From Agarilytica sp. (GTDB lineage Bacteria; Pseudomonadota; Gammaproteobacteria; Pseudomonadales; Cellvibrionaceae), in assembly GCA_045430305.1 (NCBI GenBank), contig JAILXW010000002.1:387953-451952 (forward strand): 64,000 bases of DNA, written 5' to 3'. The position numbers and the translations under genes were made by a program. Positions 28,841 to 38,088 of the stretch are shown here, one piece after another. Below the pieces are notes generated by a model that saw nothing but the letters and a program-made list of their open reading frames with translations, had not been told where the DNA came from and did no database searches. How positions within the stretch are numbered: the stretch's first letter is position 1; each line of letters opens with the position of its first letter.

Positions 28841-28911
28841 TAATTTTCATGATCAGGCTAACTCTGCAAACTGGCGAACATAGAAACAAAAACTATCTCT
28901 GGAGGTGGTGT

Positions 28912-30087
28912 GTGAAAACAATAAATAAAATGACTGGGTGTGCTTTGGTTTTAACCGGTGCTATTTGCGCTGTTCCAAGTATGGCTGTTGACTTAGGTGA
29001 GTATGGTGGCACGTCTGTCGCTTTAAAAGGTTACGTGAAGTTTGATGCAATGATGTCTCAATACGACAGCGGCGCACTTCCCGCTAATGCCTGGTATCGT
29101 GACTTTTATGTGCCATCATTGACTCCCGTTGGTGATGACGATAGCAGTGAAAACACTGTGGTCGACATGCACGCACGTCAATCGCGTTTTGCCTTGGCGA
29201 CAAAAAGTGATGTTGATGGCACGGCCTTAAAAACGTATATCGAAATGGATTTTATGCTCACTTCAAACAGTAATGAGCGGGTTTCTAATTCTTATTCCCC
29301 GCGTTTGCGTCACGCTTTTTTGACCTATGGGAACTGGACGTATGGTCAAACCTGGTCGACTTTTATGAATGTTGGTGCATTACCTGAAACACTCGATTTT
29401 ATCGGCAACACAGACGCCAGTATCTTTGTTCGTCAATCAATGGTGCGTTATACCAATGGAGGTTTCCAGTTCGCTTTGGAAAACCCTGAAACCACCATTA
29501 CACCGTACGGTGGTGGTGGACGTATCGTGACCGACGACAATAGTGTGCCTGATGTGGTTGTTCGATATAACTACAGCAGCGATAGTTTTAAATTTACAGT
29601 TGCCGGCCTTGCTCGTCAGTTAGAGTACAACGATGCCGGTTCTGATATCGATGAATCCACCAGTGGCTTTGGTTTGAGTCTGTCGGGTTCTGTGATGCTG
29701 GGTAAAGACGATCTTAAGTTTGTGCTGAACACCGGTTCTGGCATGGGGCGCTACATCGGTTTGAATATCGCGAATGATGCAGTCATTAATGCCGATGGTG
29801 AGCTTGAAGCTATCGACTCAACAGGTGCAAGTTTAAGCTATCGCCACTGGTGGAATGATCAATGGCGCTCTACCGTAGTGTATTCGGCTATTAGCGTTGA
29901 TAACGATGAAGAGCTTACAGGAACTGCCGTGTCTAAGACCTCTTCAAGTCAGCGCATCAACTTACTCTATAGCCCTACAAAACGTTTAACGCTTGGCGGT
30001 GAACTTGCTTTTGCCTCGCGTGAGATTGAAAGTGGTGATGACGGTTCTATGACTCGCTTGCAATTTAGCGCCAAACTCGCCTTTTAA
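28912..30087 (+). CDS. DcaP-family outer-membrane porin
   Basis: GGAGG RBS before GTG 28912; signal peptide; GYVKFDAM, HARQSRF, PRLRHAF, GQTWSTFM, RQSMVRY; ends in LAF. Confidence 0.85.
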   Translation: MKTINKMTGCALVLTGAICAVPSMAVDLGEYGGTSVALKGYVKFDAMMSQYDSGALPANAWYRDFYVPSLTPVGDDDSSENTVVDMHARQSRFALATKSDVDGTALKTYIEMDFMLTSNSNERVSNSYSPRLRHAFLTYGNWTYGQTWSTFMNVGALPETLDFIGNTDASIFVRQSMVRYTNGGFQFALENPETTITPYGGGGRIVTDDNSVPDVVVRYNYSSDSFKFTVAGLARQLEYNDAGSDIDESTSGFGLSLSGSVMLGKDDLKFVLNTGSGMGRYIGLNIANDAVINADGELEAIDSTGASLSYRHWWNDQWRSTVVYSAISVDNDEELTGTAVSKTSSSQRINLLYSPTKRLTLGGELAFASREIESGDDGSMTRLQFSAKLAF

Positions 30088-30124
30088 ATATTTTCTCGAT
30101 TTAGTCTGCTGGCTGTCCGTTTAG

Positions 30125-30149
30125 CCCGAGCGCAAGCTCGGGTTTTTTT
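30125..30149 (+). terminator. Terminator after the porin gene
   Basis: cccgagc-GCAA-gctcggg followed by T7. Confidence 0.85.
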
Positions 30150-30638: not shown

Positions 30639-33600
30639 GTGGAGCTTCTTGATAAGATGTTACGAAAAAAAAGCCGAATCGGTTCTCGATTCGCATTGTG
30701 TACATGTGTATTAGTTTTAACTGCCTGTGGTGGCAGTGACAATGATTCAGACGACCCACTTACTCCTGAAGACTTGCCTGATGAGTCAGGGCTTCGCGAA
30801 GCGCAAACTGGCGAGATTCCTGAAGACGCAGAAAAGCCTGCGCACGGTGCTTTTGAAGGTGGCGATACAGAAGACGTCGAAGACGCTTCCGCAAATAACG
30901 TTGTCACCGAAGAGGAAGTTGAGGCTAGTGAGTCTGATGCCGGAAAATTCGGTGAAGCCGATGCAGCCTTAAACCGACGCTTTAATGTTCCAACAAATGG
31001 CGCCCCTTCTCCCTTATTTGGTGCGGCGCCCTTCGAGCAGCAATTATTACGTTTTGAAGAATTTGGCACTTCGGTATTGGCCGATGCCGATGTCGACCCT
31101 GATTCAGCCTTAAGCTTGCCGGTACCCGCGGCAGTAGATGGCTTTCCTGAATCAGAAGCGCTCGATACTTACTTAATGCAAGACATTTACCCCGAGCCAA
31201 CGCGTTGGGCAAATAATGTTGATACCAACCCATGGGAAACTTTGATTGAGGCGTACTTGGGGCGTAGTTTAGCTAGCCCTCCATTAGAAGGTCGTCCACC
31301 CGGTGAAGGATGGGCGCATCAGCGCTGGGAAGAGTTCTTCCCCGTGCAATATTTCAGCACGGCTCAAACGGGTGCACGTACTAACCGCGGTATGCGCGAT
31401 GTAAAACAAACCCACGGCTATGCAGTCGGTGAGTTTGCTGAAGGCGGTTTGTATCACAACACCACCGGTGCTGGTGATACATTCGACGGAACTACTGCCG
31501 GCATCGAAGTGAAGTTTCACCCTGATATGCCTGTGCAAGAACAAGAAACACTTTGGACTTTCGATGGAACATTCCCGCCGAAACTCCTTAAAGTACGCTA
31601 CGGCGAGCCGGTATTAATGCGTCACCACAATGCATTGCCTGTAGACGTCTCAGCCAATAAAGGGTTTGGGCTTCACACCATTACTACGCATGAACACAAC
31701 GGCCATAACCCAGCAGAAAGTGATGGTTATGCCAATGCCTTCTTCTTCCCTGGTCAATTTTACGATTACCGTTGGCCTGTAGCGCTCGCGGGGCATGACA
31801 GCATCAACACCGACGCGGAAGACCCTTTTGCGGCTTCCCCTAACGGTAGTGGTGGCACAACAAAGATTCCGGGTGACTGGCGTGAAACTATGAGTACGCA
31901 CTGGTTCCACGACCATATGCTCGATTTCACAGCGCAGAACGTTTACAAAGGTAATGCAGCGATGATGAACTATTACTCGGCGATTGACCGTGGTAATGAG
32001 GCCATCGACGACGGTGTTAACTTACGTCTTCCTTCTGGTACCGGGTTAGATTGGGGTAACCGCGACTACGACGTTAACTTACTTCTTGCAGAAAAAGCGT
32101 GGGACTCAGAAGGCCAGTTATGGTTTAACCCCTTCAATGAGAAAGGCTTTATCGGCGATGTGATGACGGTCAACTGGTTGTACAAACCTTATATGGATGT
32201 ACGTGCTCGTCGTTATCGTTTCCGTATTTTGAACGGTTCAGTATCACGTTACTTCAAGCTTGCTTTAGTGAACGAAGCAAATGAGCCAGTTCCATTTCAC
32301 TTGATTGCTAATGATGGCAACATCATGGAGCACGCGGTGTATATGGAAAACGGTCTGTTGCCAACAATCGGTATTGCAGAGCGCTACGATATCGTTATTG
32401 ATTTCGGTGACTTTGAAGCTGGCGACCGCTTTTACTTAGTTAACATGCTCCAGCACAAAAATGGTCAGGCGACGGATGAAGTGATTCCGCTTGCCGATAT
32501 TCTTGACGGCACATACAACCCGCAAATGGTGGATGATGATACCGACGGCAGCTTTGACCGTTGGACAGCGGACCCCGTTGTTGGCACCTTTATGGAATTC
32601 CGTGTACAAGAGCACAACACGCGAGATACCAGTATGGACCCCGCAGAGTACGTTGAGTTTATCGATGGCAACGAAACTCGCCCAGGCAAGAAAATGATTC
32701 CACTTCGCCGCCCGACGGAAGAAGAGTTGCGCACTGCACTTCACCGTACGTTTGAATTTGAACGTCAAGCGACAGACGAAGCACCATGGGTTATCGAAAC
32801 TGACGGTGGAAAAGGTTTCAATATGGATCCTCGTCGTGTATCTGCGGCACCTGAGAAAAACTCGGGCGGCTTGGAAGTTTGGCGATTGGTGAACTCAGGT
32901 ACTTGGTCTCACCCGATTCACATTCACTTTGAAGAGGGTATTATTCTTCGTCGTGATGGTAAGGCGCCACCCGAGCACGAAAAGTGGGCGCGTAAAGATG
33001 TATACCGTCTAGGGCCTCAAGAAGATTCTGGCAACATGGTAGAAATCGCACTGCGCTTCCGTGAGTTTGCCGGTACCTTTATGGAGCATTGCCACAATAC
33101 TCAGCACGAAGACCACGCGATGCTTTTGCGTTGGGATATTGAAAACCCAGGTGAAACTTTGGTGATGCCTGCTCCCATTCCTTCGTGGGATGGCGTGAGC
33201 TACGTCGATACTTACGCGCTACCTACTTTCCGTACTGGTGATGCAGTGGGTCAATACGGTCCTGATCTTGAAGACGAAGCCGTTGAGATTTGGTTACAAG
33301 GTATGGAAATCGAACAAGTCGACTTGGTTGACCTAGAAATCGGTGATGCATTGAACCCGACAGAAGACGAACGCTCTGTAGGTAAGATTCCATTGCGTAC
33401 GGCTATCAATATCGATGCAGACGGAAATGAAACTACCGTCTACTTCGTGCTTCACGATATCTCAGACCAGGAGTTGGCGGAAGAAATGGGTATCGCGTGG
33501 GCAGGTGCATTGGCGCCGCTAGTAACAGCTACTGATACTGATCCACATCCGGCAGTTTCTGAAGCAACTTACGATGCAGCAACAGACACGTTCACGTTTA

Positions 33601-34562
33601 CTGGTGATTTACCTAACCCTGTGATTCGTCCTTTCCCTGGCGCTGCCAATGAGTTTGTTGGCTTGGATGATTACGTTGATAACGCTCCAGCGCAAAGTGC
33701 AGATAATGATTACTCACCACTTCGTCGTGTAGTGATCGGTGGTAAAACGGTAATCGTGAACGCTTTCTATGTTCAATGGGGTGATGAAGACTACGAACGC
33801 ATCCGAATTGATGAAAATTGTGATCCGACTGACCCGAATACTTTCCCTGATGATCCGCCCAATACAACCTGTATGTATAACGGCGAACAATGGGCGGGTA
33901 ATACTGGGCATGCATTGGAAATCAACACGACTGATGCAAATCCTTATATTCGCATGAAACTGCACAAGTCATGGACTGATGGCGGTGATTACCTTCCTTA
34001 CTACATTGTGGTGGATTCTTTCCCTGCAGGACCTGCGAATGCGATGGGCGTGACATATGTGCCTAAGCACGAGCACTTAGGTTTGGCCGCTGTACCGCTT
34101 GTGCAGTTTTTGCCACCAGCACCGCTTAGCACGAATTACCCTCCAACAGATACGAATTCCGCATCGGGCGGTGTTGATCTAACCAACCAGCTGAGTGGCG
34201 GTGGCCCTCTGGGTGGTCAGATTGGTTTGCCTTCATATTTTATGCCAGAAGACGACTACAGCCCAATGTGGCACATCGGCTTTGCATGGTGGGATCTTGA
34301 CGGTGGCGCAACGGTTGATGACATTGAAGTTGTGAGAGGTTTAGAAGAGCTTAAGCATTTGCGTGCTGAAGGTAAGATAAATATCCAAGAGTGGCCTGGA
34401 GCTGCACCATCGCACTTCAATGGCGCAACAGAAGACAACTACAACTTTACGAATACTAATTCGCCTCACGTTGTAAACTGTCCAACACCGGTTACTATTG
34501 ACTTTGCGGTACACAAAGCGCGCTTAAACTCCAAAAATGGTGGTGTTACTAGCGACGACTAA
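30639..34562 (+). CDS. Large lipoprotein multicopper oxidase (CotA/bilirubin oxidase-like, resembling Mn(II)-oxidising MCOs); start may be ATG 30657
   Basis: LTA-C lipobox; Cu motifs THEHNGH, WFHDH, HPIHIH, HCHNTQHEDHAM; acidic N-terminal linker; about 440 extra C-terminal residues. Confidence 0.9.
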   Translation: MELLDKMLRKKSRIGSRFALCTCVLVLTACGGSDNDSDDPLTPEDLPDESGLREAQTGEIPEDAEKPAHGAFEGGDTEDVEDASANNVVTEEEVEASESDAGKFGEADAALNRRFNVPTNGAPSPLFGAAPFEQQLLRFEEFGTSVLADADVDPDSALSLPVPAAVDGFPESEALDTYLMQDIYPEPTRWANNVDTNPWETLIEAYLGRSLASPPLEGRPPGEGWAHQRWEEFFPVQYFSTAQTGARTNRGMRDVKQTHGYAVGEFAEGGLYHNTTGAGDTFDGTTAGIEVKFHPDMPVQEQETLWTFDGTFPPKLLKVRYGEPVLMRHHNALPVDVSANKGFGLHTITTHEHNGHNPAESDGYANAFFFPGQFYDYRWPVALAGHDSINTDAEDPFAASPNGSGGTTKIPGDWRETMSTHWFHDHMLDFTAQNVYKGNAAMMNYYSAIDRGNEAIDDGVNLRLPSGTGLDWGNRDYDVNLLLAEKAWDSEGQLWFNPFNEKGFIGDVMTVNWLYKPYMDVRARRYRFRILNGSVSRYFKLALVNEANEPVPFHLIANDGNIMEHAVYMENGLLPTIGIAERYDIVIDFGDFEAGDRFYLVNMLQHKNGQATDEVIPLADILDGTYNPQMVDDDTDGSFDRWTADPVVGTFMEFRVQEHNTRDTSMDPAEYVEFIDGNETRPGKKMIPLRRPTEEELRTALHRTFEFERQATDEAPWVIETDGGKGFNMDPRRVSAAPEKNSGGLEVWRLVNSGTWSHPIHIHFEEGIILRRDGKAPPEHEKWARKDVYRLGPQEDSGNMVEIALRFREFAGTFMEHCHNTQHEDHAMLLRWDIENPGETLVMPAPIPSWDGVSYVDTYALPTFRTGDAVGQYGPDLEDEAVEIWLQGMEIEQVDLVDLEIGDALNPTEDERSVGKIPLRTAINIDADGNETTVYFVLHDISDQELAEEMGIAWAGALAPLVTATDTDPHPAVSEATYDAATDTFTFTGDLPNPVIRPFPGAANEFVGLDDYVDNAPAQSADNDYSPLRRVVIGGKTVIVNAFYVQWGDEDYERIRIDENCDPTDPNTFPDDPPNTTCMYNGEQWAGNTGHALEINTTDANPYIRMKLHKSWTDGGDYLPYYIVVDSFPAGPANAMGVTYVPKHEHLGLAAVPLVQFLPPAPLSTNYPPTDTNSASGGVDLTNQLSGGGPLGGQIGLPSYFMPEDDYSPMWHIGFAWWDLDGGATVDDIEVVRGLEELKHLRAEGKINIQEWPGAAPSHFNGATEDNYNFTNTNSPHVVNCPTPVTIDFAVHKARLNSKNGGVTSDD

Positions 34563-34610: not shown

Positions 34611-34649
34611 AAAATCACGGTCTACTAGAGTAGGCCGTGATTTTTTTTT
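34611..34649 (+). terminator. Strong terminator between the MCO and SCO-fusion genes
   Basis: aaaatcacggtctac-taga-gtaggccgtgatttt followed by a T run, directly before the GAGGAG RBS. Confidence 0.75.
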
Positions 34650-34663
34650 AGAGGAGCAAAAGC

Positions 34664-35989
34664 ATGGGGAAAACACTTGTAAAAGTGCATACCTTAATCA
34701 TCTTGTCGATCGCTATGTTTGTTTGTGTAAATACACACGCAAATTGGGGGGCGAACTATTTTCCAAATACAGCTTTAACTACGCACGAGGGCAGGCAGGT
34801 AAAGTTCTTTGATGATTTGTTAAAAGACAAAATTGTGGTGGTGAACTTTATATACACTACATGCCCAGATGTGTGTCCGCTCGAAACTGCTCAGTTGGTC
34901 AAAGTGCAAGAGATTTTGGGTGATCGTTTGGGAAAAGATATCTTTTTCTACTCGATTACAATTGATCCAGAACATGATTCTGTCGAGGTGCTAAAAAAAT
35001 ATCGTGAGCAATTTGGCGCGAAATGGGATTTTCACACAGGTAAGCGTACCGAGATTAAACATTTACGAAAAAAGCTTGGCTTGTATATTGATGGTGCCGA
35101 TGACGGGCCGAATAAAAATAATCACAATGTAAGCATGATTATTGGTAATCAAAAAACTGGCCGTTGGATGAAACGCTCACCTTTCGAAAACCCTTATGTG
35201 CTGGCAGATCAAATTGGCAATTGGTTAGATGGTTGGAAGTCGCCACAAAAAGTTAAAGATTATGCCAACGCACCGAAGCTTAGAAATATGTCAAATGGTG
35301 AACCGCTATTCCGTACTCGTTGTGCCTCTTGCCATTCCGTGAGTGGCGTACAAGAACCCAATGCTATTGGCCCCGATTTGGTGGGGGTGACACAACGCCG
35401 CGACAAACAATGGTTGATTCGTTGGCTGCAAGCGCCAGATAAAATGATTGCAGAAAAAGACCCGATTGCAATTGCTTTGTTGAAGCAGTGGAAAAATTTA
35501 CCGATGCCCAATTTGCGCCTCAACAAAAAAGAAGCGCTGGACTTGCTGGACTACCTTGAAAGCTTAAACTCAGAAAACGTGGGCGGAGCAAAAGTAGACC
35601 AAAAACAAATATCAAAACAAGCAGACAAGCTTGCCGTTATGAATGCGTGGGTCAGAGAGGCGCACCCGAATGCGACAGTGAATGCAGGTTACATGACCCT
35701 TATAAATGCAGGAGGGGCAGACGTAGAAATTGCTTCGGCGTCATCTAAAGCGTTTGAAAAGGTAGAGTTTCACGAAATGGCCATGGTTGACGGCATGATG
35801 GAAATGCGCGAACTGAAAGGTTTAATCATTGCTTCAGGTGATCAGTTAAAGTTCGAGCCCGGTGGTAAGCACTTGATGATGAAAGAGCCAAAACAAGCCA
35901 TTAAAGCGGGTCAGGTTATCGACATCGTGCTGACTTTCAAAGACGGTAGCCAGCAAACGCTTAGTGTAAAAGTTAAAAAGGATATTTAA
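34664..35989 (+). CDS. SCO/SenC - cytochrome c - PCuAC copper chaperone triple fusion
   Basis: CPDVC (SCO CxxxC) with distal His in HNVS; CASCH heme motif and LPMPNL; AWVREAHP...EFHEMAMVDGMMEM...PGGKHLMM (PCuAC). Confidence 0.88.
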   Translation: MGKTLVKVHTLIILSIAMFVCVNTHANWGANYFPNTALTTHEGRQVKFFDDLLKDKIVVVNFIYTTCPDVCPLETAQLVKVQEILGDRLGKDIFFYSITIDPEHDSVEVLKKYREQFGAKWDFHTGKRTEIKHLRKKLGLYIDGADDGPNKNNHNVSMIIGNQKTGRWMKRSPFENPYVLADQIGNWLDGWKSPQKVKDYANAPKLRNMSNGEPLFRTRCASCHSVSGVQEPNAIGPDLVGVTQRRDKQWLIRWLQAPDKMIAEKDPIAIALLKQWKNLPMPNLRLNKKEALDLLDYLESLNSENVGGAKVDQKQISKQADKLAVMNAWVREAHPNATVNAGYMTLINAGGADVEIASASSKAFEKVEFHEMAMVDGMMEMRELKGLIIASGDQLKFEPGGKHLMMKEPKQAIKAGQVIDIVLTFKDGSQQTLSVKVKKDI

Positions 35990-36004: not shown

Positions 36005-36039
36005 AAAAAGCTCAACACGCGATAGGTGTTGAGCTTTTT
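36005..36039 (+). terminator. Terminator after the SCO fusion
   Basis: aaaaagctcaacac-gcgatag-gtgttgagcttttt. Confidence 0.85.
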
Positions 36040-36243: not shown

Positions 36244-37134
36244 ATGCCCTTCAATATTACAGCACCGCAGGTGATAAACCCTTTTCACATTCCCAATAGT
36301 TTTAAATACTCTAATGCAATGGCTGACTGGGCTTTCTACGACGTTGGCGCGCTGAATGTTGCTGAGTTTAATTATTTGGTGAACGAGCAAAGTATTGAAG
36401 GTTCCGTGCTTGTTGCATTACCTTCTGACGAAAAAAACTTTGGCATAATCAAATATCGAGATTTCGCGGAGTTAAAAGCGGGCAGTGGTAAGCCTCTGCA
36501 ACGTTTATCCATTGCCGGGGTTGGCAGTTCTGACGTAGGGGCTGCAGCATTTGCACGTACGCTTGCCAACCATTATCAAGAACCTGTAGGCGCCATCGTG
36601 GCGGGTTACGGGGTTGCTGACATTTTGCAAGAAGGGCTTGGAGGGTGGTTTGTCTTAGGTGGCTTAAATCGCGCGATGTCGATGTTTGAGCAAACTATGA
36701 TTCAGCCGTGGAAGGGTAGCAGCTCCCACATTGATACGGCGTCAACCCTATCTGGCGTCACGGCAAAAAGCCCAGACACCGAAACTTTATTGAATATTCT
36801 TAATGACCCCGCACGCGATTTAAAATCGATAGCGGGTCATTCTAAAGGTTGTTTGAGTATTGCCTTGGCACTGCAAACGCTTGAAAAAGAAGGCTCGACT
36901 CAAGCAATCGGTAAGGCCAAGGCGTTAGAGGTAATCACTGTGGGTTCCGTGGTTAACTTGCCCGAGGGTTATGAGAATGTACGCCAATACATCGGCGACA
37001 TAGATTGGTTTGGCGGATTGAACTCAAGGGCGAATGTTGAACGTATAACAGTAAAAGGCGCATGGCATCACCTCAATACGCGCTTTCCATATCACCTCGA
37101 CCTAGTAGAGGTTCTACAAAACTCGACACAATAA
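36244..37134 (+). CDS. Uncharacterised protein with alpha/beta-hydrolase-like GHSKG motif
   Basis: IAGHSKGCL (GxSxG), upstream Gly-rich AGVGSS, downstream D (IGDIDWFG) and H (AWHHL); AGGAG RBS. Confidence 0.65.
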   Translation: MPFNITAPQVINPFHIPNSFKYSNAMADWAFYDVGALNVAEFNYLVNEQSIEGSVLVALPSDEKNFGIIKYRDFAELKAGSGKPLQRLSIAGVGSSDVGAAAFARTLANHYQEPVGAIVAGYGVADILQEGLGGWFVLGGLNRAMSMFEQTMIQPWKGSSSHIDTASTLSGVTAKSPDTETLLNILNDPARDLKSIAGHSKGCLSIALALQTLEKEGSTQAIGKAKALEVITVGSVVNLPEGYENVRQYIGDIDWFGGLNSRANVERITVKGAWHHLNTRFPYHLDLVEVLQNSTQ

Positions 37135-37143
37135 CGAGGCTGC

Positions 37144-38088
37144 GTGAAAAAAATTGATGTTGGTATTAGTTCGTGCCTGTTGGGGCAAGAAGTGCGTTAC
37201 AACGGCGGGCACAAACTTTCACGTTACTGTGTCAATCATCTAAGTAAGGTATTTGAATTTCACCCTTATTGCCCAGAGGTTGCAATCGGTCTGGGAACGC
37301 CGCGCGAAACCATACGGCTTGTGGGGGAAGTTGATAACCCACGAGTTGTAGGCAGCAAAACCGAAGCGCTCGATGTTACCGAGCCATTACGGGAATATGG
37401 CGAAAAAATTGCTGCACAAAGCGATACGTTAAGCGGTTACATTCTCATGAAAAGTTCGCCAAGTTGTGGGCTTTACAGTGCAACAGTCTACAAAAATAAT
37501 CAGCCCTTACCCGGCAAACATGCAGGTATGTTTGTACGTGCCTTGGCAGAAAAGCTGCCTCTTCTTCCTATGGAAGAAGAGGGTAGGCTTAATGACCCTC
37601 GTCTAAGGGAAAACTTTATTGCTCGCGTGTTTGCTTATCACGACTGGAAGTGTTCGGTAGGCAAGGCCCCAAGCCCCCAAAAACTCGTCAACTTTCACAG
37701 CCGTTATAAATACCTAGTTATGGCGCATTCACAAGCCGGATACAAAAGGCTCGGCCAGCTCGTGGCAAAAGCTGGGGTAGGTGATATCAAAACACATGCC
37801 GACACTTACATCACCATACTTATGAGCACGCTTAAAAAACTTGCCTCGCGCAAAGGCCACACCAATGCAATGTACCATCTGCTTGGCTATTTGAAAGAGG
37901 GAGTGCCAGGCAACGCGAGACAAGAACTCGCCAAACATATCGAAGACTACCGCGAAGACATCGTGTGCCTCAGTGTACCCATGGCCTTGCTTAGTCACTA
38001 CTTGAAGCTGTATGGAAGCGACTACATAAAACAGCAGGCCTACCTAGAGCCCTACGCCCACGATCTGGGCCTTCGCAATGCGATATAA
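37144..38088 (+). CDS. DUF523/DUF1722 (YbgA-family) protein
   Basis: VGISSCLLGQEVRYNGGH, CPEV...GLGTPR, KSSPSCG, EEEGRLND, FHSRYKY..MAH, YLEPY. Confidence 0.88.
   Translation: MKKIDVGISSCLLGQEVRYNGGHKLSRYCVNHLSKVFEFHPYCPEVAIGLGTPRETIRLVGEVDNPRVVGSKTEALDVTEPLREYGEKIAAQSDTLSGYILMKSSPSCGLYSATVYKNNQPLPGKHAGMFVRALAEKLPLLPMEEEGRLNDPRLRENFIARVFAYHDWKCSVGKAPSPQKLVNFHSRYKYLVMAHSQAGYKRLGQLVAKAGVGDIKTHADTYITILMSTLKKLASRKGHTNAMYHLLGYLKEGVPGNARQELAKHIEDYREDIVCLSVPMALLSHYLKLYGSDYIKQQAYLEPYAHDLGLRNAI

Follow-up and report, generated by a model that had tools for sequence, protein, structure and literature searches.

A SCO–cytochrome c–PCuAC fusion protein encoded beside an McoA-type multicopper oxidase in Agarilytica: a candidate single-chain maturation factor

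How multicopper oxidases are loaded with their four coppers in the periplasm is poorly understood, and the sole dedicated factor that has been studied, CutF, is unrelated to the protein described here. The closest described counterpart of that protein comes from the manganese oxidase operons of Pseudomonas. Each of these operons has genes for SCO proteins and codes for a cytochrome c domain (PMC11409713), and one of the oxidases, McoA, is stated to travel by the Sec route (PMC13689576). The Pseudomonas authors propose that the SCO gene encodes the copper chaperone of McoA, which is a proposal only (PMC13689576, PMC11409713). Additionally, P. putida mutants in the cytochrome c maturation (ccm) genes lose manganese oxidation, a 1998 finding that we take from its citation in PMC13689576. 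Here we describe a related gene in a 64-kb stretch of DNA from Agarilytica sp. (contig JAILXW010000002.1; hereafter, the window). The gene (34664..35989) encodes a 441-amino-acid (aa) protein, P0001, in which a SCO domain, a cytochrome c domain and a PCuAC domain are fused. Coordinates are those of the window unless a locus is named, and the fusion gene, the oxidase gene upstream of it, and the ribosome-binding site and hairpins of this pair lie on the plus strand. The fusion is a widespread three-domain variant of the known PP_3183-type SCO–cytochrome c fusions that accompany McoA-type oxidases. On balance, we favor the view that it is a periplasmic, single-chain factor for copper delivery and redox maturation, dedicated to the McoA-type oxidase encoded directly upstream.

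Domains and metal sites of the fusion protein

The fusion gene was defined by translation of its open reading frame (ORF), by Pfam and by more than 120 full-length three-domain homologues. The ORF begins with ATG, 7 nucleotides (nt) past a ribosome-binding site, AGAGGAG, read from the sequence at 34650..34656. Pfam matched SCO1-SenC (PF02630) at residues 38–159 (3e-23, 82.6 bits against a cut-off of 22.8), Cytochrom_C (PF00034) at residues 211–301 (2e-7) and PCuAC (PF04314) at residues 325–432 (8e-32), and all three matches exceed the curated cut-offs. An export signal, either a Sec-type signal peptide or a signal anchor, occupies residues 1–26 (34664..34741). It consists of a lysine-rich n-region and a hydrophobic core followed by a THA/NW junction, and no lipobox was found on reading this sequence. 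Residues 2–22 form a helix in the AlphaFold2 model, and all homologues have a comparable hydrophobic N-terminus. Judged by its residues, the segment looks like a cleavable Sec signal peptide, and the fusion protein is apparently soluble rather than membrane-anchored.

Conservation of each metal site was scored in an alignment of 88 sequences, 63 of which have all three domains. The SCO1/SenC thioredoxin-fold domain (residues 28–190; 34745..35233) contains C67xxxC71 (34862–34876) and H154 (35123–35125), and C67, C71 and H154 are unchanged in 88/88 aligned sequences. Foldseek matched this domain to human, Bradyrhizobium and Bacillus Sco structures (1WP0, 4WBJ, 1XZO) with a target-normalized template-modeling (TM) score of ∼0.73. 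The class-I cytochrome c domain (residues 209–301; 35288..35566) carries C220xxC223H224 (35321–35335), where haem attachment is predicted, and the axial ligand M281 (35504–35506). C220, C223, H224 and M281 are invariant in the alignment, and M281 lies within an invariant MPN motif.

The haem domain is followed by a flexible linker (residues 302–321; 35567..35626) of variable length and low predicted local distance difference test (pLDDT) score. Residues 307–317 are disordered in the AlphaFold2 model (pLDDT <50), and among the 63 relatives the linker ranges from 12 to 40 residues with no conservation of sequence. The PCuAC Cu(I)-chaperone domain (residues 322–438; 35627..35977) displays H370, M381, H403 and M405 in the exact H(M)X10MX21HXM spacing, unchanged in 63/63 three-domain relatives. 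Foldseek aligned this domain with 3ZJA, 2K6W and 9YAH at target-normalized TM scores of 0.83–0.90 and root-mean-square deviations of 1.7–2.3 Å. The His/Met-rich C-terminal Cu(II) tail, which is frequent in the PCuAC family and not defining for it, is absent from the fusion (which ends ...VKVKKDI) and from 62 of the 63 relatives. The AlphaFold2 model, built on the same alignment, reached a mean pLDDT of 86.7 and joins the haem domain tightly to SCO. Indeed, every metal ligand of the three sites is invariant in 63/63 three-domain relatives. Thus, the exported 441-aa chain described in the original prediction, which was made from the DNA letters and had assigned it a CxxxC plus His site, a CxxCH plus Met site and a PCuAC His/Met site, is upheld by the ORF, by Pfam and by the invariance of the ligands.

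The three-domain architecture is frequent in sequence space and phylogenetically narrow, being confined to a single clade made up mostly of marine Gammaproteobacteria. A word-indexed search through 5.8 billion proteins gave 4940 matches, 120 of them listed, and all 120 listed matches share the three Pfam domains and are 57–68% identical to the fusion. At least 120 clusters at 90% identity have the SCO–cytochrome c–PCuAC architecture. Most of these proteins are metagenome sequences, and the named sources are Colwellia, Paraglaciecola, Alteromonadaceae, Agarilytica and other metagenome-assembled genomes (MAGs). When 1.84 billion cluster representatives were searched exhaustively with HMMER, 294 clusters had matches below 1e-30, and there the three-domain form is essentially one 50%-identity cluster (P0356) plus fragments. 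Database names for three-domain proteins are generic: 'copper chaperone PCu(A)C', 'protein SCO1/2' or 'cytochrome oxidase Cu insertion factor'. The original prediction had recognized that its case would suffer if the architecture were common and characterized; common it is, but our literature search found no published description of the three-domain form.

Other architectures in the superfamily are the two-domain SCO–cytochrome c, SCO–cytochrome c–SCO, SCO–SCO–cytochrome c–periplasmic binding protein, DsbA–SCO and HMBD–SCO–SCO. In the SCO–cytochrome c–SCO proteins, which form a related lineage, a second SCO domain takes the C-terminal position of PCuAC, indicating that a second copper site was gained at least twice. 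Several uncharacterized fusions of the superfamily occur among the HMMER matches (P0359, P0398, P0404 and P0421; P0415, P0456 and P0462; P0411 and P0438; P0417), and the SCO–SCO–(cytochrome c)–periplasmic binding protein form resembles genes of the mnxG operon fused together.

The partner oxidase and the conserved gene pair

The gene upstream of the fusion (30657..34562) encodes an McoA-type multicopper oxidase lipoprotein of 1301 aa from its ATG, with the lipobox LTAC, a catalytic core and a DUF7482 tail. Its ORF spans 30639–34562 with a probable start at 30657, and the database gene call is likewise 1301 aa. Pfam identified Cu-oxidase_2/3 and DUF7482. The HxH, HxH, HxxHxH and HCHxxxHxxxxM motifs, like the lipobox Cys, show no change in 13 orthologues, and the Cu-site residues are H351/H353, H424/H426, H758/H761/H763 and H817-C818-H819...H823...M828. 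No twin-arginine (RR) motif is present in the oxidase sequence. As a lipoprotein without this motif, the oxidase is most likely exported unfolded by Sec and would need its four coppers inserted in the periplasm. The DUF7482 tail (oxidase residues 866–1307; 33240–34562) is strongly conserved, with 141 residues invariant in the 13 orthologues, among them C1061, C1078, C1281, H939, H1109, H1144, H1212 and two DYSP-type motifs.

Among PDB entries, the fusion matched best to 2L4D, 'SCO1/SenC family protein/cytochrome c' (E 1.3e-29, 54% identity), a structure of the pp3183 cytochrome c domain from P. putida. Pseudomonas proteins were located with a chimeric query and scored over the cytochrome domain only. 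The Pseudomonas orthologues are 315–350 aa long, and the next nearest proteins are the marine three-domain ones. None of the listed Pseudomonas orthologues contains PCuAC; at most they have SCO (PF02630) and cytochrome c (PF00034/PF13442). The cytochrome domain of one of them, P0242, is 99% identical to 2L4D, and the fusion is 57% identical to P0242 over residues 28–299 (E 3e-118). The P0242 locus consists of genes for a 1131-aa multicopper oxidase, the SCO–cytochrome c protein, a GGDEF/EAL protein and an integrase, in that order, and corresponds to the published P. putida GB-1 mcoA operon minus its phosphonate-binding ABC-transporter gene (PMC11409713, PMC13689576). The window oxidase and the Pseudomonas McoA orthologue are 52% identical over residues 9–866, the entire catalytic core, while their tails are unlike, DUF7482 in the window and cadherin/Big_9 repeats in Pseudomonas. 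By these sequence comparisons, the oxidase–fusion pair of the window is orthologous to mcoA/PP_3183, so that the original prediction was correct about SCO–cytochrome c fusions beside McoA.

In a maximum-likelihood tree of the SCO–cytochrome c region, the 63 three-domain proteins form one clade with 99/99 support. Its closest neighbor in the tree is P0334, a single two-domain protein; the Pseudomonas clade joins next, and the alphaproteobacterial-type forms fall outside. The single three-domain clade indicates that PCuAC was gained once and never lost in the sample. The contig of P0334 stops 438 nt upstream of the gene, short of any oxidase position.

Gene neighborhoods were compared in 35 loci from species-representative genomes and in 5 further three-domain loci. 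The three-domain gene lies directly downstream of an oxidase orthologue, on the same strand, in 19/19 loci elsewhere as well as in the window. At the two-domain loci (alphaproteobacterial-type, Pseudomonas and Zobellella), the oxidase orthologue was found immediately upstream wherever the upstream sequence sufficed. The predicted link between the fusion and the neighboring multicopper oxidase is very strongly supported. Two main forms of the pair were distinguished. In the gammaproteobacterial form, an oxidase of ∼1250–1315 aa with a C-terminal DUF7482 is partnered by a three-domain protein; this form was seen in Agarilytica, Parashewanella, Colwellia, Paraglaciecola, Halioglobus and Alteromonadaceae, and in one MAG labeled Flavobacteriales (L002). 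In the alphaproteobacterial-type form, seen in Alphaproteobacteria, Micropepsaceae and MAGs labeled Flavobacteriaceae, an oxidase of ∼750–880 aa is partnered by a two-domain SCO–cytochrome c protein of ∼300–360 aa. The multicopper oxidase is the sole neighbor conserved across Gamma- and Alphaproteobacteria. Since the other flanking genes vary between gammaproteobacterial loci, the oxidase and three-domain genes constitute a two-gene module.

The window and 19/19 loci elsewhere combine DUF7482 in the oxidase with PCuAC in the chaperone, a combination that no two-domain locus shows. The co-occurrence may reflect a docking relationship, but the association carries little statistical weight because each feature arose only once. 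The oxidases at P0226 and P0171, which lack a DUF7482 annotation, were considered as exceptions and rejected: their genes are split by frameshifts on low-coverage contigs, and DUF7482 and PCuAC are still encoded. Additionally, the 64-kb window contains no cytochrome oxidase, cop/cus, copA or cueR genes, and no cox/cco genes adjoin the fusion or its relatives in any locus examined. Salinivibrio loci L032–L035 hold canonical, separate SCO and PCuAC genes, unlike the fusion.

The spacer between the two genes of the window contains a terminator-like hairpin (34611..34649) with a 15-bp stem, a 4-nt loop and a T-run, detected by a terminator scan. Its fold of −22.3 kcal/mol (z = −5.4) was equalled in 0/200 shuffles. 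The hairpin stops 1 nt short of the ribosome-binding site of the fusion gene, too close for a promoter to fit in between. A hairpin with a T-run occupies the same spacer position in 14/14 gammaproteobacterial loci (L001–L013, L029) in addition to the window, and since the stem sequences differ between loci it is the structure, not the sequence, that is conserved. A GC-rich hairpin is also found in this spacer in many alphaproteobacterial-type loci and in Pseudomonas, where it has no T-run (L038:7940–8005). The simplest reading is partial termination, yielding much oxidase and little chaperone, and the hairpin likely sets the ratio of the two products as an attenuator or as an element of mRNA processing or stability. 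Conservation of the structure suggests a low dosage of the chaperone, which fits a sub-stoichiometric helper. A second terminator-like hairpin (36005..36039; −22.2 kcal/mol, z = −3.9), also found by the terminator scan, closes the two-gene unit.

Several other genes lie near the module. One subclade of the three-domain family has, as the next gene after the module, that of a folding catalyst in which a cyclophilin-type prolyl isomerase is joined to DsbA/thioredoxin (L042:6396–7619, L043:6372–7547); this catalyst may be a third maturation factor of the module. In nine alphaproteobacterial-type loci (L015–L017, L019–L021, L024, L025, L027), the oxidase gene is preceded by that of a ∼1000–2200-aa protein with animal-haem-peroxidase and RTX-repeat regions (for example, L021:105–6479), which has the architecture of the Mn-oxidizing peroxidase MopA. 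A convergent gene for a ∼505-aa methyltransferase follows in most such loci (L015, L017, L019–L022, L024). The adjacency of a MopA-like peroxidase and an McoA-type oxidase places two classes of candidate manganese oxidase side by side, an arrangement that goes unmentioned in the published MopA paper. The module occurs twice (L010 and L012) on the Halioglobus MAG chromosome OZ253569.1, at 4.05 Mb and 0.49 Mb; the copies give identical protein matches and have several flanking genes in common, some of them inverted, pointing to a recent duplication, to a mobile segment or to an assembly repeat.

Within the window, a DcaP-like porin gene (28849–30087) lies between acs and the oxidase gene and has a strong terminator of its own (30123–30144). 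The porin gene is probably unrelated to the module, beside which it is not conserved in other genomes. We rejected both it and the downstream genes at 36244–38088 as members of the unit, their conservation being confined to the closest relatives (Agarilytica) or absent. A 510-aa ORF of L014 (9–1541), without a Pfam match, is probably spurious.

A proposed role in oxidase maturation and its alternatives

If the fusion matures the upstream oxidase, its domains could act in sequence. The flexibly tethered PCuAC domain would capture Cu(I) at its His2Met2 site and hand the copper to the CxxxC/His site of SCO, in the way that free PCuAC supplies Sco when cytochrome oxidase is assembled. The c-type haem would control whether the copper on SCO is Cu(II) or Cu(I), the redox state of the SCO cysteines, or both, by exchanging electrons in either direction with the periplasmic cytochrome pool. 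SCO would deliver the copper to the apo-oxidase and may also hold the type-1 Cys of the oxidase reduced, and the intergenic hairpin would hold the chaperone at a fraction of the oxidase level. For the fusion itself, we infer the transfer of copper, its direction and the role of the haem. In 2011, Banci et al. reportedly observed that electrons pass between SCO and cytochrome c within pp3183.

Several indirect lines of evidence argue for a dedicated role in maturation: the conservation of the ligands, a strict synteny that is otherwise free of context, and the single gain and full retention of PCuAC. Additionally, this role is consistent with a second SCO domain standing in for PCuAC in a related lineage, with the dosage signal of the hairpin, with the neighboring folding catalysts and with the proposal of the Pseudomonas authors. 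It also draws on the lack of cytochrome oxidase and cop/cus genes in the window, on the orthology with mcoA/PP_3183, and on an oxidase that has a lipobox and no RR motif. The relay envisaged in the original prediction, in which the chain stores Cu(I), manages redox through the haem and loads the oxidase, is plausible on these grounds, and as a whole that interpretation is partly supported.

Other points weigh against dedicated copper delivery. We know of no multicopper oxidase that has been shown experimentally to be metallated by Sco or PCuAC. How the domains of the model are oriented toward one another is uncertain, as indicated by its predicted TM score (pTM) of 0.60. Synteny shows functional coupling, not its direction or its chemistry. 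The hairpin could be a full terminator, with a separate promoter for the fusion gene, or an mRNA-stability element. Lastly, the single multicopper oxidase examined for such a requirement, the CueO-type CutO of Rhodobacter capsulatus, needs neither SenC nor PccA (PMC8456105).

Among the alternatives, we consider it unlikely that the pair is a copper-detoxification unit, in which PCuAC and SCO would present Cu(I) as a substrate to a CueO-like cuprous oxidase while the haem helps to remove the electron. CueO- and CotA-type enzymes are indeed among the sequence relatives of the oxidase, and known homologues of both chaperone domains bind Cu(I) (PMC9145763). However, copA, cueR, cus and cop genes were not found nearby, and the orthologous Pseudomonas manganese oxidase is under MnxR/sigma-54, not copper, control (PMC13689576). 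Additionally, the alphaproteobacterial-type module adjoins a MopA-like haem peroxidase, not copper-resistance genes.

Marginally less likely still is that the fusion serves as a stable, stoichiometric redox partner whose haem links the type-1 copper of the oxidase to the periplasmic cytochrome pool. The oxidase would then either burn cytochrome electrons on O2 or pass electrons from a substrate, such as Mn(II), into the respiratory chain. An invariant c-type haem domain joined tightly to SCO and the strict synteny with the oxidase would both be expected of such a partner, and links between cytochromes and manganese oxidation have been discussed for Pseudomonas (PMC13689576). Yet a multicopper oxidase reduces O2 unaided and requires no acceptor, and two conserved copper-chaperone domains with intact ligands would be left unexplained. 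The terminator-like hairpin that precedes the gene in 14/14 loci argues against 1:1 stoichiometry, and the Mn-oxidizing activity of Pseudomonas is located outside the cell (PMC13689576). The original prediction had also allowed that the fusion passes substrate electrons to respiration; this alternative gained nothing from the data and is weakened because the conserved hairpin implies a low dosage.

We regard as very improbable a general assembly factor for the CuA/CuB sites of haem-copper cytochrome oxidases that merely adjoins a multicopper oxidase: although SCO and PCuAC are the classical CuA/CuB assembly pair (PMC9145763, PMC6669012) and 'cytochrome oxidase Cu insertion factor' is among the database names, no locus has adjacent cox/cco genes, the multicopper oxidase is the sole conserved neighbor, canonical separate SCO and PCuAC genes such as those of Salinivibrio look different, and the fusion lacks the His/Met tail that PcuC uses for Cu(II) delivery to CuA.

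Dedicated maturation of the oxidase thus being the role we favor, a broader version of it may be put forward tentatively. SCO-plus-haem modules might be obligatory for maturing large, Sec-exported oxidases of the Mn-oxidase type (McoA and the related arrangement of the mnxG operon). If haem-bearing SCO proteins do mature these oxidases, the dependence of manganese oxidation on ccm genes would be explained. The marine PCuAC and DUF7482 domains would then be a co-evolved pair of donor and docking site, and the first defined Sco/PCuAC pathway to metallate a multicopper oxidase. We hold this extension to be possible, with the odds against it.

With one oxidase gene and one chaperone gene, the module is a compact and genetically simple test case. 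Sco and PCuAC proteins, mainly assemblers of cytochrome oxidase (and of GlxA in Streptomyces), have here, it appears, been enlisted for another copper enzyme and joined to a redox centre of their own. Our reading of the fusion offers a testable account of why bacterial manganese oxidation depends on cytochrome c maturation genes. Moreover, the McoA-family partner enzyme is abundant in marine metagenomes, and so the module bears on which bacteria of the sea make manganese oxides. The gain is limited because the two-domain form and its link to McoA are published, the three-domain proteins are already in databases and the functional claims are inferred.

Comparison with known copper-delivery systems

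In Streptomyces lividans, Sco and the PCuAC-like ECuC provide the copper of both cytochrome oxidase and GlxA, a radical copper oxidase. This system is a precedent for a Sco/PCuAC pair that serves a copper enzyme without a CuA site, and ECuC (3ZJA) is among the best structural matches of the PCuAC domain of the fusion (target-normalized TM 0.86–0.89). Unlike the fusion, Sco and ECuC are separate proteins without a haem domain, and their client is a mononuclear radical oxidase, not a four-copper enzyme. In methanotrophs, the PCuAC-domain proteins PmoF1 and PmoF2 (6P16, 6P1G) are encoded alongside a copper enzyme that is not a cytochrome oxidase, and their structures match the PCuAC domain of the fusion with target-normalized TM scores of 0.76–0.83. 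PmoF1 and PmoF2 use a histidine-brace site and, in contrast to the fusion, have no SCO or haem domain fused to them.

CutF of R. capsulatus, which serves CutO, resembles the fusion in being an exported CxxxC protein encoded in the operon of its oxidase. CutF is small, is present at very low abundance and is required for CutO activity (PMC8456105). It differs in its unrelated fold and in having neither haem nor PCuAC, and SenC and PccA are dispensable for CutO. ScoI and PcuC of Bradyrhizobium diazoefficiens, and Sco1 and PCuAC of Thermus thermophilus, are separate chaperones that build the CuA site of cytochrome oxidase. They share with the fusion the same two folds and the CxxxC...H and H(M)X10MX21HXM motifs (PMC9145763). 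Canonical Sco proteins are anchored in the membrane by a transmembrane helix or a lipid (PMC9145763). Unlike ScoI and PcuC, the fusion is a single chain with a haem domain between the two chaperones, is apparently soluble and has no Cu(II) His/Met tail. Its conserved neighbor is a multicopper oxidase and not CoxB.

The nearest described relative of the fusion remains PP_3183/PputGB1_2666 of P. putida, whose role in vivo is, like that of the fusion, putative only. The two proteins agree in the order of SCO and then cytochrome c, in their place after an McoA orthologue and in their conserved ligands, and in Pseudomonas, too, the spacer between the oxidase and SCO genes contains a hairpin, there a GC-rich one. 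PP_3183-type proteins differ in their length of 315–350 aa and in lacking PCuAC, and their oxidase carries a cadherin/Big_9 tail in place of DUF7482.

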